Of a stretch of 50,841 bases of DNA, positions 40,285-47,338 are shown piece by piece. The notes under the pieces were generated by a model that was not told where the DNA came from, did not search any database, and worked only from the letters and a program-made list of their open reading frames with translations. The first letter of the stretch is position 1. Each line of letters begins with the position of its first letter. The position numbers and the translations under genes were made by a program. Origin of the DNA: Clostridiales bacterium (GTDB taxonomy: Bacteria; Bacillota; Clostridia; Christensenellales; SZUA-584); assembly GCA_029265435.1 (NCBI GenBank), contig JAJUJH010000004.1, forward strand, positions 1 to 50,841, in the 5' to 3' direction.

Positions 40285-42879
40285 ATGGCTACCGAGAAAA
40301 AAGCGGAAGATTTGGCCGCCGTGATCGACGGTCTCGTAAAAAACGCGAACGAAGCGCTCAAAGCGTATATGACAATGGATCAGAAACAGGTGGACAGCAT
40401 GGTTCACGCCATGACGCTCGCCGGCCTTGACAACCATATGCGCCTTGCCAAGTTGGCCGTGGAGGAAACGGGGCGCGGTATTTTTGAAGACAAGGTCATC
40501 AAAAACATTTTTGCGACCGAATACATCTGGCACAGCATCAAAGACCAGAAAACCGTGGGCATCATCGACGAAAGCGAGCTTGAAGGTTATGTGGAAGTCG
40601 CGGAACCCGTCGGCATCATTGCAGGCGTCACTCCCGTGACCAACCCGACCTCCACCACGATGTTCAAGGCGCTGATCGCCGCGAAAACGCGCAACCCGAT
40701 CATATTCGCGTTCCATCCATCCGCACAGAAATGCTCCGTGGAATCCGCGAAGGTTTTGCGCGACGCCGCCGAAAAGCACGGCGGGCCGAAAAACCTGATT
40801 CAGTGGATCGAAACGCCTTCGATCGAGGCGACAAACGCGCTGATGAACCACCCGAATGTGTCTCTGATACTCGCCACAGGCGGCGCCGGCATGGTGAGAA
40901 GCGCGTACAGCGCCGGCAAGCCCGCGCTTGGCGTCGGGCCCGGCAACGTGCCATGCTACATCCATAAAGATGTGGATATCGAGCGGGCCTGCACCGACCT
41001 CGTCATATCCAAAACGTTCGACAACGGCATGATATGCGCGTCCGAACAGGCCGCGATCGTCCATAAGGATATCGCACCCGCCTTTGAAGCCGTCATGAAA
41101 AAACTCGGCTGCGTGTTTCTCGGTGAAGAGGACACGGCAAAGCTGACGAACTACATGATCAACACGGCAAAAATGGCGGTCAATCCCGATGTCGTCGGCA
41201 AATCGGCGGTATGGATCGCCGAAAAAGCGGGGATTAAGGTGCCCGCCGATACCAAAATACTGCTGGCAAAGCTTCCGAAGCCGGATATCGCCTATCCGCT
41301 CTCACTCGAAAAGCTGTCCCCCGTTCTCGCATACTTTATCGCGAAGGACGAAAAGCAGGGCTTTGAATACGCGAGCAGGATGCTGGAGCTCGGCGGACTT
41401 GGCCACAGCGCCGTGATTCACGCAAACGACGAGGCGCTGACAGTGAACTACGGCGAGTCCATGAAGGTGGGCCGCGTCATCGTCAACTCCCCCTCATCAC
41501 AGGGTGCAATCGGCGATATCTACAACACGAACACCCCGTCTCTGACGCTTGGATGCGGAAGCTTCGGACGAAACTCCACGACGTCCAACATTTCTTCCAT
41601 CAATCTGCTCAATAAAAAGCGCATCGCGCAGAGGAGAGTGAACATGCAGTGGTTCAAGATTCCGCCGAAAATCTACTTTGAAAACAATTCGGTGCAATAT
41701 CTCGCATCAATGCCGAATATCAGCCGTGCGTTTATTGTGACGGATCCGATGATGGTGAAGCTCGGTTATATCGACAAGGTGCTCCATTACCTGAGAAAGC
41801 GCGAGGTATACTGCCACAGCGAGATATTTGCCGATGTGGAGCCGGACCCGTCCGTCGAAACCATCATGCGGGGCGTGGAGGCGATGAACAAATTCAACCC
41901 CGACGTCATCATCGCGCTCGGCGGCGGCAGCGCCATCGACGCGGCAAAAGGCATGTGGCTGTTCTACGAGCACCCCGATACGGACTTTGAGGGTCTGAGG
42001 CTCAAGTTCCTCGATATCCGCAAGCGCGCGTTCCTGTTCCCGAACCTCGGCAAAAAGGCGCAGCTCGTCGCGATACCCACGACATCGGGCACAGGCTCCG
42101 AAGTGACGTCGTTCTCCGTCATTACCGACAAAAAGAACGGCAACGTGAAATACCCGCTTGCCGACTACGAGCTGACGCCCGACGTGGCGATCATCGATCC
42201 TCAGTTCGTGCGCACAATGCCGAAATCCATCACAGCGGATACCGGCATGGACGTATTGACGCACGCAATTGAGGCATATGTGTCGATACTCGCGTCCGAC
42301 TATACCAACGGCCTCGCAATGAAGGCGATCGAGCTCGTGTTCAAATATCTGCGGCGTTCGTATCACGACCCGGAAGATACGGTGGCGCGCGAGAAGATGC
42401 ATAACGCGTCTTGCATCGCGGGTATGGCGTTCACCAACGCGTTTCTCGGCATCAACCACTCGCTCGCGCACAAGCTGGGCGGCGAATACCACATTCCGCA
42501 CGGCCGCGCCAACGCGATACTCCTGCCTCATGTGATCGCTTACAACGCGCAGATGCCAACCAAGTTCGCGATATTCCCGAAGTACGGCAAATTTGTCGCG
42601 GACGAGCGCTACGCGCAGATCGCACGGTATCTGGGCTTCGGCGGCGCGACGAAGGAGGAGCAGGTCTCGAATCTCATCAAAGAGATCGTGAAGCTCATGA
42701 AAGACCTGAATATGCCGCTGACGATCGCCGAAACGGGCGTGGATGAAAAAGAGTTCCTGAGCAAGCTCGACGCGCTTTCGGAACGCGCGTTTGAAGACCA
42801 GTGCACCACGGCCAACCCGCGTTATCCGCTCGTCACCGAGCTTGCGGACATATACAAAAAGGCATACTACGGCAAATAA
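40285..42879 (+). CDS. adhE: Bifunctional acetaldehyde-CoA / alcohol dehydrogenase
   Basis: 864 aa. An N-terminal ALDH domain (catalytic Cys context FDNGMICASEQ) is fused to a C-terminal iron-containing ADH domain (GGGSAIDAAK, and His-rich ligands around AFLGINHSLAHKLGGEYHIPHG). Confidence 0.96.
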   Translation: MATEKKAEDLAAVIDGLVKNANEALKAYMTMDQKQVDSMVHAMTLAGLDNHMRLAKLAVEETGRGIFEDKVIKNIFATEYIWHSIKDQKTVGIIDESELEGYVEVAEPVGIIAGVTPVTNPTSTTMFKALIAAKTRNPIIFAFHPSAQKCSVESAKVLRDAAEKHGGPKNLIQWIETPSIEATNALMNHPNVSLILATGGAGMVRSAYSAGKPALGVGPGNVPCYIHKDVDIERACTDLVISKTFDNGMICASEQAAIVHKDIAPAFEAVMKKLGCVFLGEEDTAKLTNYMINTAKMAVNPDVVGKSAVWIAEKAGIKVPADTKILLAKLPKPDIAYPLSLEKLSPVLAYFIAKDEKQGFEYASRMLELGGLGHSAVIHANDEALTVNYGESMKVGRVIVNSPSSQGAIGDIYNTNTPSLTLGCGSFGRNSTTSNISSINLLNKKRIAQRRVNMQWFKIPPKIYFENNSVQYLASMPNISRAFIVTDPMMVKLGYIDKVLHYLRKREVYCHSEIFADVEPDPSVETIMRGVEAMNKFNPDVIIALGGGSAIDAAKGMWLFYEHPDTDFEGLRLKFLDIRKRAFLFPNLGKKAQLVAIPTTSGTGSEVTSFSVITDKKNGNVKYPLADYELTPDVAIIDPQFVRTMPKSITADTGMDVLTHAIEAYVSILASDYTNGLAMKAIELVFKYLRRSYHDPEDTVAREKMHNASCIAGMAFTNAFLGINHSLAHKLGGEYHIPHGRANAILLPHVIAYNAQMPTKFAIFPKYGKFVADERYAQIARYLGFGGATKEEQVSNLIKEIVKLMKDLNMPLTIAETGVDEKEFLSKLDALSERAFEDQCTTANPRYPLVTELADIYKKAYYGK

Positions 42880-42904
42880 ACAAATGCGTCATATTTCTCG
42901 GAAC

Positions 42905-42937
42905 GGCAAAGAGACGGCCGAATGCCGCCTCTTTGCC
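42905..42937 (+). terminator. Strong hairpin 25 nt after adhE (GGCAAAGAGACGGC-CGAAT-GCCGCCTCTTTGCC)
   Basis: 13 of 14 stem positions pair, with one A/C mismatch. No U-tract follows. The same arms recur at 43091-43123. Confidence 0.5.
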
Positions 42938-43050
42938 TCAGACTGTCAATAAATCTATAAATATCATTTGTGGGCAAGACGGGCTTTGCCCGCGCCGCCC
43001 ACACCTTGCGGTTTTGCGCCGTTTCGAGCTTGCGAGGAACAAGCAAAACC

Positions 43051-43089
43051 GGAAAACTGTCGGAAAACCGAAGGTTTTTCGACAAGCTG
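43051..43089. repeat. 39-nt dispersed repeat, copy A (contains mini-hairpin GAAAACC-GAA-GGTTTTC)
   Basis: GGAAAACTGTCGGAAAACCGAAGGTTTTTCGACAAGCTG. Its reverse complement matches 49820-49858 apart from 2-3 differences. Confidence 0.7.
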
Positions 43090-43090
43090 C

Positions 43091-43123
43091 GGCAAAGAGA
43101 CGGCGGAAAGCCGCCTCTTTGCC
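43091..43123. terminator. Second copy of the adhE-type hairpin, 7 nt beyond the stop of the minus-strand desulfurase gene
   Basis: GGCAAAGAGACGGC-GGAAA-GCCGCCTCTTTGCC, followed by TTTAT on the plus strand. Confidence 0.45.
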
Positions 43124-43129
43124 TTTATG

Positions 43130-44503
43130 TCAACGAGCGGCCAGTTCGCGCAGTGCGCAAACAAGCGCGTCGATATCCTCATACGTGTTATACATTCCGA
43201 TTGAAGCGCGAGCAGCGCTTGCAAGGCCGTAATGCGCGAGCGCGGGCTGCGCGCAGTGGCAGCCCGCACGCACCGCGATGCCGTGATCGTTGAGATGCCG
43301 CGCGATTGCCATCGGCTCCGCGTTGTCCATCACGAACGCCGCGACACTCGTTCGGCTCTCCGACGCGCCGATCAGCGTCAGCCCCGGTATGCGCGACAGG
43401 CCCTCCGTCATGTACCGCGTAAGCGCGTGCTCAAACGCGGCGATCCTGCCCATGCCCACTTCGTTTATATAATCGATGGCTGCGCCCAGCCCCACCGCGT
43501 CCGCAATATTGCCCGTGCCCGCTTCGAATTTCGCGGGAATCGGCTGATACTCCGTTTTTTCAAAGCTCACTTTTCTTATCATGCCGCCGCCGCTCTGATA
43601 CGGCGGCATGCTTTCAAGCAGCGCCTTTTTGCCATACAGCACGCCGATGCCCGTCGGCGCGTACACCTTGTGCCCCGAAAACACAAAAAAATCCGCGTCC
43701 ATCTCCCGCACGTCCACAGGCAGGTGCGGTGCGGACTGCGCGCCGTCCACGAGTATCAGCGCGCCGTGCCGGTGGGCGGCGTCCGCAATGATTTTCACCG
43801 GATTCACCGTTCCGAGCACGTTGGATACATGCGTCACGGCGCAAAGCCGCGTTCGCGGCGTGATCAGCCGTTCAAACGCATACGGATCGAGTTCTCCCGA
43901 CCAATCAAACGGCATGACCTTGATGACCGCGCCCGTTTTTTCGGCGGCGCGCTGCCAGGGCACGATGTTGGAATGATGCTCCATCTCGGTGAGCAGTATC
44001 TCGTCGCCGGGGTGAAGATTTGCGGCGCCCCAGCTCTCCGCCGCAAGATTGATGCCCTCCGTCGTGCCGCGCACGAAAATGATCTCTTCAGCCGACGCCG
44101 CGCCCAGAAAGGCGCGCACCTTCTCCCTCGCTTCCTCATAGCAAAGTGTGGCCCGCTGTGCGAGCGTGTGCGCGCCGCGATGCACGTTGGCGTTGCTTGC
44201 GCTGTAATAGCGGCTCACCGCGTCGATTACGCATTGAGGCTTCTGCGTGGTCGCCGCGTTGTCGAGCCAGACGAGCGGCTTGCCGTTCACCTTCGTTTTA
44301 AGTATCGGAAAATCATCGCGGACGAACGGCGCCGCAGGCGAAGGCTCCCGGCCCGCATTAACGGCCGGCGTAACGCTTTGCCGCATAAAAGGCATATCCT
44401 TGGGCATCTCTGCGTTTGGCCTTGCGGGCATTATGTCGCCTCGCAGAAAGCTTTCCGTCATTGCCTGCCGGACCCGCCATGGCGTATTGCTTGTCATCAT
44501 CAT
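43130..44503 (-). CDS. SufS/CsdA-type (group II) cysteine desulfurase with an N-terminal extension of about 60 aa; no suf/isc partners nearby
   Basis: DNAATTQKP, a PLP-lysine block SGHKVYAPTGIGVLYGK and the active-site RAGCHCAQP are present. The start is set at ATG 44503 (MMMTSN...), 5 nt after GGAGAGGAG. Confidence 0.85.
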   Translation of the reverse strand: MMMTSNTPWRVRQAMTESFLRGDIMPARPNAEMPKDMPFMRQSVTPAVNAGREPSPAAPFVRDDFPILKTKVNGKPLVWLDNAATTQKPQCVIDAVSRYYSASNANVHRGAHTLAQRATLCYEEAREKVRAFLGAASAEEIIFVRGTTEGINLAAESWGAANLHPGDEILLTEMEHHSNIVPWQRAAEKTGAVIKVMPFDWSGELDPYAFERLITPRTRLCAVTHVSNVLGTVNPVKIIADAAHRHGALILVDGAQSAPHLPVDVREMDADFFVFSGHKVYAPTGIGVLYGKKALLESMPPYQSGGGMIRKVSFEKTEYQPIPAKFEAGTGNIADAVGLGAAIDYINEVGMGRIAAFEHALTRYMTEGLSRIPGLTLIGASESRTSVAAFVMDNAEPMAIARHLNDHGIAVRAGCHCAQPALAHYGLASAARASIGMYNTYEDIDALVCALRELAAR

Positions 44504-44670
44504 ACCTGCTCCTCTCCGCATAATCGGGAACGCCGGAAATATTGTCCGCTGGCACTGCAGAGAAATAAAGGCTCGGAATATGCAAAACGATCCGCCCGAT
44601 ACCGCCGGGTCTCATCGTCATTCTCAAATACGGGCTTATCCATGCCATAGACGGGGCCGTATTGATTCAT
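44500..44670 (-). CDS. Hypothetical 56-aa ORF translationally coupled to the desulfurase gene
   Basis: Not in the ORF track (under 60 aa). The manual translation is MNQYGPVYGMDKPVFENDDETRRYRADRFAYSEPLFLCSASGQYFRRSRLCGEEQV. GAAGGGAAG lies upstream, and its TGA overlaps the desulfurase ATG (ATGA). Confidence 0.35.
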   Translation of the reverse strand: MNQYGPVYGMDKPVFENDDETRRYRADRFAYSEPLFLCSASGQYFRRSRLCGEEQV

Positions 44671-44921
44671 CGTTCTTCCCTTCTTACCCCAAAGCCGATA
44701 TGGCCTTGCGATTACTATATGAGCATGCCCTTTGCGCTGTGCGGCGCGCGTCCAGCCGTTCCGCCGACGAACACACCGCCCTGCATGAAACAGGCTTCAC
44801 ACAGGGCGGTTTGAAAAGAGGGTGGACACAGAAGCAAAGAGGGGGGCAAATGCGAACCGTTTGAATGTAAGGCCCGCCGCCTTGGCGAGCCTGCTCTCTA
44901 GGCTTCACAAAGAACGATCCG

Positions 44922-45131
44922 TCAGCACCACCAGCAGCGGCGGCAGACACAGCAGCACCAGCAGCGCTTCCTGCAGCCATAAGGCTTGTAATGGAAGCCC
45001 CGGATACCGTCTTTATCTTCCCACGGAACATATCCGCCGAATTCGGCGTTGTCCCGATCCGCGCCGTCAATTTCGCCGAAGCCTTGGGGCTCGTTCTTCG
45101 CATCAGGCCATTGAGGATATCCATCCGGCAT
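44922..45131 (-). CDS. Hypothetical 69-aa protein: acidic/aromatic N-terminal part plus a cationic Cys/Trp-rich C-terminal tail
   Basis: Track ORF 44922..45140 was trimmed to ATG 45131 after the SD-like GGGGGGTGA. The product is MPDGYPQWPDAKNEPQGFGEIDGADRDNAEFGGYVPWEDKDGIRGFHYKPYGCRKRCWCCCVCRRCWWC. Its upstream motif is shared with the 45659 micro-ORF. Confidence 0.5.
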   Translation of the reverse strand: MPDGYPQWPDAKNEPQGFGEIDGADRDNAEFGGYVPWEDKDGIRGFHYKPYGCRKRCWCCCVCRRCWWC

Positions 45132-45560
45132 AAGTGTCACCCCCCTCTATGCATATTGTATTCACAGAAAAAAAAAAGTGCGCTTATAATTCTTCATGTT
45201 CTTTCTCAGCGCTTCATTGCCGTTTTGTCTGTGATATTTCTCACTCCAATCTGCATAGAGTATACAAGCATATCAAACGAGGGTTTTGTATGAAGCGCGA
45301 AGAAGAAGATGATGAGATTATCATAAAAAAGATCACCGAAAAGCAAAAGCTCTCGGCTTATATCGGGCTTCAGAACGTACCGCTCAGAGAGGACGACCCC
45401 CGTATCAGCATCAGGTTTCCCATCAGCCTCCGGTTGTTCTGCGCCGCTTTTGCCGTATCGCGCATGGAAAAAAACAAAAACGAAGGGTGAGCCTGCGCCT
45501 CATGTATGGCCCGCCGCAGCGGCGAGCCGTTTGGGGAACTCGGTCTTTTGCCGCCGGGCT

Positions 45561-45659
45561 TTACCAGCGCCAGCCGCCGCGGTTCCAGCCGCAGCAGCGG
45601 TTCCAGCCGCAGCCCCAGCCGCGGTTCCAGCCGCAGCCCCAATTACACCTGCAGCACAT
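45561..45659 (-). CDS. Hypothetical 32-aa Cys/Trp/Gly/Arg-rich micro-protein with three CGWNR repeats
   Basis: Not in the ORF track (under 60 aa). The codon-by-codon manual translation is MCCRCNWGCGWNRGWGCGWNRCCGWNRGGWRW followed by a stop. The SD-like GGGGGGGTGA ends 4 nt before the ATG. An in-frame TAA lies 8 codons upstream, so this is the only possible start. Confidence 0.5.
   Translation of the reverse strand: MCCRCNWGCGWNRGWGCGWNRCCGWNRGGWRW
45579..45637. repeat. Three copies of the 17-nt unit GCGGTTCCAGCCGCAGC (periods 18 and 24 nt) underlying the CGWNR peptide repeats
   Basis: Perfect copies at 45579-45595, 45597-45613 and 45621-45637. The spacing is a multiple of 3, consistent with a coding repeat. 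Confidence 0.85.
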
Positions 45660-45775
45660 TATCTCACCCCCCCTATTGATATATTATTCGCAGGGCTGCG
45701 TATTGTCACGTTCCCGCTCTTTCGTCACATTTTATACAAACGAATATTTTTCCGTCTGCGGCCAATAATAGGCTT

Positions 45776-47338
45776 ATGAAACCGAAGAAAAACGTTTTTT
45801 TTCGTTTATCGTCAAACAAAAAGCAGGCGGTCATTGATAACGCCGTCAATGAGATCGATCAGGACCTGCAAAACGCTGTGCTTTCCGATTCGCTCGAGCA
45901 AAACACGGCAATTTTGAACGGCCTCTTTCAGGATGTGGATATTTTCATCACGAAGACGGTCACAACCCAAAACGATACGCTGAAGATCGCGGTCGCATAC
46001 TGCGCGGGCGTAACAAGCAAAGAGATAATCGCCGAAAACATCATTGAGCCGCTCACCGTCTGCAGCGATTTAACAAACGGCACGGATATGCTTTCCCATA
46101 TTATGGAGTCCGTGATACAGATCGGCGATGTCAAAAAAACGGGCAGCATAAGCGCGATCGTGGAAGCCGTCTGCTATGGAGATACCGCTGTGCTCCTCGA
46201 CGGGTCGGCGGAAGCCCTGATCGTCAATACCAAGAATTTTTCGACGCGCGCAATCACCGAGCCGGAAAATGAACGGGCGCTCAGCGGCCCGCGCGAAGGC
46301 TTTACCGAAACGCTGATGGTCAATATCTCCATGCTCCGCCGCCGTGTGCGTTCCCATAAACTCAAGCTGAAAATACGGATAATCGGCAGCCAGACAAAAA
46401 CGCAGGTCTGCATCTGCTATATGGACGGTCTTGTCAACGAAAAGATACTTACGGAGCTGTATAAACGGCTCGACAAAATCAATATCGACGCCGTTCTCGA
46501 TACCAATTACATCTCGGAGCTGATCAAGGACGGCCCCTATTCCCCTTTCCGCACCATCGGATACACGGAGCGGCCCGATACCGTGATCGGGCGGCTGCTT
46601 GAAGGCCGCATCGCGCTCATTGCGGACGGAAGCCCGTCTGCGCTGACGCTGCCCTATTTGTTTATCGAGAACTTCCAGAGCAGCGAAGATTATTATATGA
46701 ACTACTACTATACGTCGTTTTCAAGGATACTGCGCATATTCGGCTTCACACTCACGCTGATCGTTCCGGCGCTTTATATCGCCATCGTCGCGTATCATCA
46801 TGAGATGCTGCCCACGCAGCTTCTCATCAACATCGCAATCGCGCGCCAGAACGTGCCGCTGCCCGCCTCCGTCGAAGCGTTTCTGATGCTCATCGTTTTT
46901 GATATACTGCGCGAAACAGGCGTGCGCATGCCTTCCAACGTGGGCCAGGCGCTCAGCATTGTGGGCGCGCTCGTCATCGGCCAGGCCGCCGTGGACGCCA
47001 AAATGGTGGCGGCGCCCATGATCATCATCGTGGCGCTCACCGGCATCACCAATCTTCTTGTGCCGAGGCTCAGCGGCCCTGTAATCTACATCCGGTATTT
47101 TTTTCTTCTCGCGAGCTCGCTTTTCGGCTTTTACGGCCTTGTGCTTGGCATGTCTTCAGTCGTCATCCATATACTCAATCTGCGCTCGTTCGGCATACCT
47201 CAGGTCTCCGCCGCCGGCAACGTCCGTTTTCAGGATGTCAAGGATACGGTTTTCCGCACCCCGTGGCGCAGCATGAAAACGAGGCCGAAATGGAGCCGCA
47301 ACAAAACACGCTTGAATGCAAAGGGCAAAAGCTCATGA
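45776..47338 (+). CDS. Spore germinant receptor, A subunit (GerA/GerAA family)
   Basis: 520 aa. A soluble N-terminal domain is followed by 4-5 TM helices, in typical GerA-family order (…REGFTE.L..N..MLRRR…). Confidence 0.9.
   Translation: MKPKKNVFFRLSSNKKQAVIDNAVNEIDQDLQNAVLSDSLEQNTAILNGLFQDVDIFITKTVTTQNDTLKIAVAYCAGVTSKEIIAENIIEPLTVCSDLTNGTDMLSHIMESVIQIGDVKKTGSISAIVEAVCYGDTAVLLDGSAEALIVNTKNFSTRAITEPENERALSGPREGFTETLMVNISMLRRRVRSHKLKLKIRIIGSQTKTQVCICYMDGLVNEKILTELYKRLDKINIDAVLDTNYISELIKDGPYSPFRTIGYTERPDTVIGRLLEGRIALIADGSPSALTLPYLFIENFQSSEDYYMNYYYTSFSRILRIFGFTLTLIVPALYIAIVAYHHEMLPTQLLINIAIARQNVPLPASVEAFLMLIVFDILRETGVRMPSNVGQALSIVGALVIGQAAVDAKMVAAPMIIIVALTGITNLLVPRLSGPVIYIRYFFLLASSLFGFYGLVLGMSSVVIHILNLRSFGIPQVSAAGNVRFQDVKDTVFRTPWRSMKTRPKWSRNKTRLNAKGKSS

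Follow-up and report, generated by a model that had tools for sequence, protein, structure and literature searches.

A probable lineage-restricted gene for a 69-residue protein with an acidic front and a Cys-rich cationic tail, beside a shell-less encapsulin operon of a spore-forming bacterium

The spacer between a germinant-receptor operon and the remains of an encapsulin operon in a Clostridiales bacterium (GenBank assembly GCA_029265435.1, contig JAJUJH010000004.1) contains a 69-codon open reading frame, here called ORF69, which is probably a real protein-coding gene. The stretch of DNA analysed, 50,841 nucleotides (nt) long, is referred to as the window, and all coordinates are given on its forward strand. 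The best explanation overall, held with modest confidence, is that ORF69 is a lineage-restricted gene which arose as an extended duplicate of a neighbouring micro-peptide cassette, and that its product carries a thiol-rich tail masked by an acidic front.

ORF69 lies on the minus strand at 44922-45131 and consists of 69 codons and a TGA stop, as established from the list of open reading frames and by three-frame translation. Its ATG starts at 45131 and the stop codon occupies 44924-44922. The frame is open on this strand, and its translation agrees letter for letter with the 69-amino-acid (69-aa) protein described in the original prediction, which had been made from the letters of the DNA. The product, MPDGYPQWPDAKNEPQGFGEIDGADRDNAEFGGYVPWEDKDGIRGFHYKPYG-CRKRCWCCCVCRRCWWC, begins with MPDGYP. 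In the list of open reading frames ORF69 is given from an upstream GTG at 45140; this start was rejected because the codon abuts the G-run of the Shine-Dalgarno sequence.

The protein has two modules, and this architecture is real. Codons 1-52 (44976-45131) encode an acidic part with 11 Asp/Glu against 5 Lys/Arg, a net charge of -6 and an isoelectric point (pI) of 4.3, in which there are 9 Gly, 6 Pro and 9 aromatic residues and no Cys at all. Codons 53-69 (44925-44975) encode a Cys/Trp/Arg tail with 8 Cys, 3 Trp, 5 Lys/Arg and no acidic residue, with a pI of 9.0. These counts bear out the anionic N-terminal part and the cationic 17-residue tail that had been described before. The charge of the N-terminal part nearly balances the +5 of the tail, and the whole protein (8.1 kDa) has a pI of 5.7. 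It contains neither a signal peptide nor any other export signal. The structure predicted by AlphaFold2 without an alignment showed a single feature, a beta hairpin at residues 34-48 (predicted local distance difference test, pLDDT, 54; predicted template modelling score, pTM, 0.25), and the model was too poor for a fold search.

The coding status of ORF69 can be judged from the comparison of two strains, the window and a 43.8-kb metagenome contig from the Joint Genome Institute (JGI), referred to as L090, which is an independent assembly of a second strain and shares 98.6% identity with the window along 6.2 kb. L090 encodes an identical 69-aa protein. The only difference in the 210 nt of ORF69 is a CGC to CGT change at Arg64 (44940), which is synonymous, so that the nonsynonymous rate (dN) is 0 and the synonymous rate (dS) is 0.025. 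The spacers at both sides are more variable, with 4 differences in 158 nt before ORF69 and 8 in 251 nt after it, and the fastest-evolving stretch between the strains is the nearby remnant of the encapsulin shell gene (6 differences in 149 nt). At the non-coding rate of 2.6-3.2%, the probability of finding one difference or none in ORF69 would be 0.009-0.027, and that of finding no nonsynonymous change would be 0.004-0.012. For comparison, SufS, GerA, GerAC and adhE show dN values of 0-0.007 and dS values of 0.02-0.046, and orf56, a chimeric frame in the shell remnant that has gained a stop in L090, shows 6 differences in 171 nt (dN 0.037, dS 0.027). Judged by these counts, the shell remnant is evolving neutrally.

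The composition of the frame points in the same direction. The codon usage of the N-terminal part scores 0.289 bits per codon, which is the best value among the six frames and falls at the 30th percentile of true genes. The mean score of true genes is 0.331 and that of open wrong frames is -0.119, with 5% of the latter scoring above the N-terminal part. When the sequence of this part is shuffled, 11% of the versions remain open; multiplied by the one-in-three chance of joining the Cys frame, this gives about 4%. ORF69 is presumably translated.

ORF69 is related to a second gene on the same strand. At 45561-45659 there is a paralogous gene for a Gly/Cys/Trp micro-peptide of 32 aa (MCCRCNWGCGWNRGWGCGWNRCCGWNRGGWRW), with a promoter (GTGACA-17-TAATAT) at 45709-45681 and a hairpin at 45508-45528. 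Its orthologues in related loci (L001, L002, L083, L087 and L089) encode peptides of 38-43 aa with a conserved start, MC(C)NR, and a conserved end, RW before the stop. The resemblance in composition between the tail of ORF69 and this 32-aa peptide had already been noticed, and the likeness reaches the flanking 5' and 3' signals too. Directly 5' of each ATG there is a block with the consensus CTG(C/T)GAATA..ATAT..ATAG(A)GGGGGGTGA, identical between both genes at 25 of 31 positions. In ORF69 this block, CTGTGAA-TACAAT-ATGCATAGA-GGGGGG-TGA, spans 45137-45167 on the minus strand and includes a -10-like TACAAT at 45160-45155 and the GGGGGG of the Shine-Dalgarno sequence at 45145-45140. The complete G-rich Shine-Dalgarno sequence, GAGGGGGG (45147-45140), ends 8 nt upstream of the ATG. 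Within the 50.8 kb, the motif formed by an AT-rich -10 element and a GGGGGTGA Shine-Dalgarno sequence occurs in front of these two genes only (0.00 occurrences expected); the same 5' block lies upstream of the peptide genes in L001 and L002. Inside the coding regions, the block of Cys codons, based on (G/T)GC TGC AGG, is identical at 34 of 46 positions and is read in the same frame in both genes.

The 3' side is shared as well. An RNA hairpin in the 3' untranslated region (UTR), GGCUCGCC-AAGGC-GGCGGGCC followed by UUACAUUC (44871-44891, minus strand), is located 31 nt past the stop codon of ORF69. Its general form, GGCTCGCC-N5-GGCGGGCC-(A/T)TACAT, is found 33 nt after the stop of the 32-aa gene, the two blocks being identical at 23 of 27 positions. 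There are exactly two matches to it in the window, those of the two cassettes, against 0.00 expected. One copy of the hairpin lies 3' of the peptide gene in every relative, and its predicted folding was confirmed computationally.

Two observations concern the micro-peptide family itself. The hairpin in the 3' UTRs consists of a conserved 8-bp stem, GGCUCGCC-loop-GGCGRGCC, followed by YUACAUUC, the loop being variable; since it is not accompanied by a U-run, it is not a plain terminator, and the change of a G.U pair into an A-U pair in L087 is in keeping with an element at the RNA level, on the sense strand. The 32-aa peptide differs from its counterpart in L090 (2451-2570) by two nonsynonymous changes, G14C and C17W, which move a Cys and keep both the composition and the number of Cys residues. 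This pattern suggests that selection may act on composition and not on the exact sequence of the peptide.

Four features define the micro-peptide cassette: the 5' block, the hairpin pattern GGCTCGCC-N5-7-GGCGRGCC some 30-55 nt after the stop, the promoter GTGACA-17-TAWAWT and a product of 32-43 aa with no residues other than G/C/W/R/N(F), which starts with MC(C)(N/R)R and ends in RW. ORF69 has two of the four, the 5' block and the hairpin. From the promoter it keeps only the -10-like TACAAT, the position of the -35 hexamer being occupied by GCGCAC after a run of ten T, and its product departs from the format. For these reasons ORF69 is classed, on sequence features, as a derived paralogue of the micro-peptide cassette and not as a typical member of it.

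The distribution of both genes was studied in relatives taken from GTDB genomes and from ENA, Logan and NCBI contigs. In seven related loci, whose SufS proteins are 70-78% identical, there is one short peptide gene each (38-43 aa) and no 69-aa form. The window region 45325-44746 shows no DNA homology to these loci by blastn, with the exception of the hairpin. From both facts it follows by parsimony that the cassette was probably duplicated in the lineage of the window. The profile built from seven micro-peptides found nothing in a collection of 5.8 billion clustered proteins, from which it would follow that these genes have never been called by gene finders; ORF69 is the sole cassette product that gene callers report.

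The searches with ORF69 itself yielded little. A word-indexed search of the 5.8 billion clustered proteins returned the self-match alone, and a HMMER scan of 1.84 billion representatives gave just two repeat proteins (E = 1e-4 and 7e-4), which are spurious: several stretches were matched in each and their architecture is unrelated. A scan of metagenome contigs gave only matches of 11 residues to the low-complexity tail (L081 and L082), and there were no matches in Pfam, NCBIfam (both at E <= 0.1), PHROGs, PADLOC or PDB. One DNA sequencing run from a digester contains a 197-nt contig identical to 44375-44571 (depth about 2) and no contig over ORF69. As far as these collections reach, ORF69 is found in just one uncultured lineage of spore-forming anaerobic-digester bacteria. 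The original prediction had named a lack of homologues with a conserved frame as evidence that would speak against it: beyond the species level such homologues are indeed lacking, and this is offset by the conservation within the species. The source of the 156 nt that encode the N-terminal part was sought by tblastn and blastn in the window, the shell genes and all related loci, in any frame, and nothing rose above noise; an origin from the deleted shell gene was rejected at detectable levels on the same grounds.

The genomic frame of ORF69 is a family-2A encapsulin operon that has lost its shell. In the relatives, gerAB, gerAC and gerAA lie on one strand, and on the other strand there are the Gly/Cys/Trp peptide gene, the shell gene, SufS and, further on, adhE; the peptide gene and the shell gene are separated by an open reading frame of 64-79 aa on the opposite strand. 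The shell protein of the relatives is SrpI-like and has 328 aa (PF19307, E = 2.5e-105). The flanks of the window match this layout, with adhE at 40285-42879 and the ger genes from 45776, and there is no shell gene. A remnant of it was located at 44490-44745 on the minus strand by tblastn and blastn, which matched both ends of the gene. The 5' end, at 44745-44628, comprises the conserved upstream region and codons 1-14 (start MNQYGP at 44670), and the 3' end, at 44621-44490, retains the last 47 codons or so in a different frame, codons ~15-281 having been deleted. This 3' piece is the sole match of the L001 shell protein in the window (tblastn E = 0.025). The frame of 56 codons at 44670-44500, orf56, is a chimera of both ends.

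The SufS-type cysteine desulfurase, the former cargo of the encapsulin, is encoded at 43130-44521 on the minus strand, with a likely start at 44503 (457 aa). Its best NCBIfam match is NF041166, the family-2A cargo desulfurase, with 670.8 bits against a cut-off of 800; the score stays below the cut-off because only profile positions 219-623 are matched and positions 1-218 are missing. In this desulfurase family the cargo-loading motifs are LARLANEFFS and AASPYYFLDG (PMC8049743). The seven relatives, which have short N-terminal domains, keep them as EL..(L/M)ANxxYR and (E/Q)xPYYF(M/I), whereas in the window they have decayed to MTESFLRGD and DMP--FMRQ. Between strains the enzyme shows a dN/dS of about 0.1, which indicates purifying selection. 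With the shell deleted and the motifs decayed, the operon is a shell-less relic with a still-constrained enzyme. The link between ORF69 and this desulfurase is one of genomic neighbourhood only: the desulfurase is the cargo enzyme of the decayed operon and not a dedicated partner of ORF69. A separate observation concerns a loop of the enzyme (around 43200, minus strand), which reads RAGCHC (RAGCHCAQP) in the window and in L090, and RAGHHC in the 13 other desulfurases inspected (13/13). The change affects the residue before the catalytic Cys loop and coincides with the loss of the shell.

Between both cassettes there is also a conserved open reading frame of 66 aa on the plus strand (45290-45490). 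It has a near-consensus promoter-like site (TTCACA-18-TATAAT) at 45161-45190, which overlaps the 5' block of ORF69, and homologues of 64-79 aa in relatives (L001 2411-2689 on the minus strand, L083 3478-3705, L087 3463-3657 and L089 3579-3785). The conserved protein motif is ...IGLQN.PL....ISI.F.ISLRLFC.AFA.SRMEK..., and DNA homology to the relatives covers 45489-45325. Of the changes between strains, one is synonymous and three are conservative. The frame does not match any family. The genes at 33-50.8 kb encode a solute-binding protein, LacI, a beta-lactamase-like protein, GH13, a kinase, AdhE, SufS and GerA/C/B. A search of Rfam over 42800-45900 revealed no riboswitch or leader, its two matches being far below the gathering score.

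The following origin is proposed. The neighbouring cassette, with its -10/Shine-Dalgarno block, its Cys-rich coding repeat and its 3' hairpin, would have been duplicated into the spacer 5' of the encapsulin operon, and the duplicate would then have gained about 150 nt (50 codons), in frame, behind the start codon and ahead of the Cys codons. As the relatives make the Cys-rich module as a free peptide of 32-43 aa, the thiol-rich, cationic, Trp-containing tail of 17 residues is likely to be the functional module and working end of the protein, and the acidic front a lineage-specific addition. This front, rich in Gly, Pro, Asp and aromatic residues and predicted to be mostly disordered, would offset the +5 of the tail and most likely keep it soluble or masked inside the cell. 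It is plausible that it acts as an intramolecular counter-ion, in a self-neutralising design. The suggestion of a pro-piece that neutralises a cationic peptide therefore seems reasonable as far as it concerns a charge balance in cis (-6 vs +5), added on to a stand-alone module; the part of it that called for a leader of a modified peptide found no support. With regard to the tail, the preferred suggestion, put forward tentatively, is that it would serve thiol chemistry or form disulfide cross-links in a layer of the spore or of the cell surface, because the family always lies beside the ger operon of spore-formers and comes without export signals or maturases. In a bolder and rather unlikely version, ORF69 would encode a precursor that neutralises itself and contains a cationic Cys/Trp/Arg peptide. 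It would have grown out of a free micro-peptide gene when about 150 nt, of non-coding or other source, were recruited as an acidic pro-domain, and its product could serve the sulfur or thiol handling of the shell-less desulfurase or be a masked membrane-active peptide.

Several points weigh against the explanation favoured here. The acidic part has no homologue in any of the collections searched, so that the case for conservation stands on very few substitutions between two close strains. The constraint on ORF69 could be mimicked by a tract of recent recombination or by rates that vary locally. The promoter scan found no conserved -35 hexamer GTGACA 5' of the gene, and a terminator-like hairpin lies upstream at 45357-45335, for which reasons transcription of ORF69 is not assured. 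The strong plus-strand promoter of the 66-aa frame overlaps the 5' block, and the assignment of a sigma E, K or G promoter by eye was ambiguous, the -10-like hexamer being the only secure element. Unlike the peptide family, the tail contains no Gly or Asn, and its last residues are WWC in place of WRW. The AlphaFold2 model does not exceed a pLDDT of 54, and the role in a spore layer is drawn from neighbourhood and composition only. Besides, the locus is visibly decaying, with the shell deleted and the cargo motifs lost, and the duplicate could be a by-product of rearrangement.

This last point leads to the main competing explanation, which is somewhat unlikely: the rearrangements that removed the shell would have left a decaying duplicate of the cassette, non-functional, in which the 69-codon frame is open by luck. 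It would account for an orphan without relatives in every database searched, seen in two strains only, in the middle of a degraded locus and without a -35 element; moreover, the DNA is GC-rich here and 37% of 52-codon windows are open. It is harder to reconcile with the single synonymous change in 210 nt, given about 3% divergence in the flanks, since the shell remnant with orf56, a true pseudogene close by, evolves fastest and gains a stop. Gene-like codon usage is found in the 69-aa frame only, the Shine-Dalgarno sequence is intact at optimal spacing, and the chance that the inserted 150 nt would be both in frame and stop-free is about 4%. It is hardly credible that another frame is the real one, either the 146-aa frame on the minus strand (44684-45124) or the 103-aa frame on the plus strand (44822-45133), or that the locus acts as RNA only. 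Both alternative frames are open, and a role as RNA and one as protein cannot be told apart from the constraint between two strains alone; nevertheless, the 146-aa frame, which the original prediction had kept as a rival, has 8 differences in 441 nt, 6 of them nonsynonymous and 2 synonymous (dN 0.018, dS 0.018), as against none and one in the 69-aa frame, and could be dismissed. The single change in ORF69 would be nonsynonymous in both the 146-aa frame and the 103-aa frame, the codon scores of both are poor, and there is no family match and, in 42800-45900, no Rfam match.

If ORF69 is a gene, its tail could be read in other ways. One reading, improbable on present evidence, is that the 8 Cys take persulfide from the shell-less adjacent desulfurase or buffer metal for it. 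Desulfurase encapsulins store elemental sulfur (PMC10836720). ORF69 lies directly upstream of the orphan cargo enzyme, on the same strand and only in the lineage without a shell, in which the loop of the enzyme has changed from RAGHHC to RAGCHC. Against this, relatives with an intact shell carry the short peptides too, and the encapsulin/desulfurase loci that are more distant, L003-L009, lack them. Between ORF69 and the remnant of the operon lie about 250 nt and a hairpin, and there is no similarity in Pfam or NCBIfam to the SufE, SufU, CsdE, TusA, rhodanese or metallothionein families. Trp-rich tails are also atypical of metallothioneins. Still less probable is a ribosomally synthesised and post-translationally modified peptide (RiPP), bacteriocin or pro-antimicrobial precursor, whose acidic piece would be cut off at YG/C, setting free a cationic hairpin peptide of Cys, Trp and Arg for modification or export. 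The charge layout is like that of a leader plus core, which is how the original prediction had put it, and the composition of the tail resembles that of hairpin antimicrobial peptides of 17-18 residues rich in Cys, Arg and aromatics. Anionic pro-pieces are known for defensins (PMC2803202). Nevertheless, a leader in the RiPP sense is not supported: the 32-aa paralogue and all orthologues, sister peptides in seven relatives, are leaderless, the genes at 33-50.8 kb include neither a maturase (YcaO, radical SAM, Lan) nor a peptidase or an ABC exporter, and no precursor family of NCBIfam or Pfam is matched, including SCIFF and heterocycloanthracin. Neither a signal peptide nor any known leader motif is present; there is no double-glycine in register, the residues before G32-G33 missing the hydrophobic pattern at -4, -7 and -12. 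The idea of a cysteine-sensing attenuator, with the peptide as a leader for the operon, was set aside, because in the relatives the peptide is several hundred nt away from the shell gene, with the opposite-strand gene in between; besides, cysteine sensing leaves the richness in Gly and Trp unexplained.

If ORF69 is expressed, it would represent a dated and traceable duplication of a micro-protein gene that gained a charge-complementary N-terminal domain without a detectable ancestor, which would be useful for studies on how small proteins evolve and on bacterial coding sequence that arises de novo. Through ORF69, as the sole member long enough for gene finders, a never-annotated family of Gly/Cys/Trp micro-peptides would also become accessible. 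Should the reading of the front as an acidic pro-domain be true, the birth of a domain would have been caught in the act. Independently of ORF69, the locus is a natural case of loss of a family-2A shell in which the cargo desulfurase is kept, with both loading motifs decayed and a change from HHC to CHC; it is thus a natural experiment on the necessity of the shell. In practical terms, only experiment could justify treating the adjacent desulfurase as a dedicated partner of the Cys-rich proteins.

Among known systems, the family-2A desulfurase encapsulin operons (SrpI-like, PF19307; Nichols 2021, PMC8049743; Benisch 2024, PMC10836720) constitute the genomic frame of ORF69. In the relatives these operons encode the 328-aa shell and then the SufS cargo, which bears both loading motifs. 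What the window retains of this is the cargo enzyme and the two ends of the shell gene; with the shell deleted and the motifs decayed no compartment can form, unlike in an intact operon. ORF69 is neither shell nor cargo; it is similar to neither of them, matches neither PF19307 nor any other Pfam family, and has no loading motif by reading. The bacterial metallothioneins (SmtA/BmtA, MymT) have Cys-X-Cys clusters without aromatics, whereas ORF69 has 3 Trp among the 17 residues of its tail and no Pfam match. RiPP precursors with Cys-rich cores include microcin B17, the heterocycloanthracins, which are thiazole/oxazole-modified microcins (TOMMs), and the SCIFF ranthipeptides. Like ORF69, these precursors have a longer N-terminal part and, behind it, a short C-terminal segment rich in Cys, their core; ORF69 differs from them in that there is no cyclodehydratase or radical SAM gene nearby, no model is matched and its sister peptides are leaderless.

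Cys-rich proteins of the spore surface are a further point of comparison, and CotY and CotZ of B. subtilis belong to them. Those of C. difficile, CdeC and CdeM (PMC6101409, PMC7677010), are like ORF69 in being rich in Cys, devoid of export signals and often lineage-specific. On the side of ORF69, the host is a spore-former and the gene adjoins the germinant-receptor operon. Nevertheless, ORF69 shows no homology to CdeC, CdeM, CotY or CotZ (Pfam, NCBIfam and HMMER), is much smaller, and no sporulation-sigma promoter could be assigned to it. By these comparisons ORF69 is not a member of the RiPP precursors, the encapsulin parts, the metallothioneins or the known spore-coat families.

In its way of working, ORF69 may come closer to masked peptides. 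Protegrin and the cathelicidins are cationic, disulfide-rich antimicrobial peptides with an anionic pro-piece. The precursors of alpha-defensins (PMC2803202), like ORF69, place an acidic segment of matching opposite charge before a short segment rich in Cys, Arg and aromatic residues; unlike ORF69, they are eukaryotic, secreted by means of a signal peptide and cleaved by known proteases. The closest relatives are the Gly/Cys/Trp micro-peptide genes beside the ger operon, which have the same 5' block, the same hairpin at the same distance from the stop and Cys codons in the same frame, and whose products are likewise cationic and rich in Trp, on the same strand and in the same neighbourhood. 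ORF69 differs from them in its 52 additional acidic N-terminal residues, in the absence of the -35 hexamer and in its presence in the window lineage only. It would therefore be a small Cys-rich protein of a familiar kind, with no need of a new category, which resembles a pro-peptide-masked cationic Cys-rich peptide in the way it may work.

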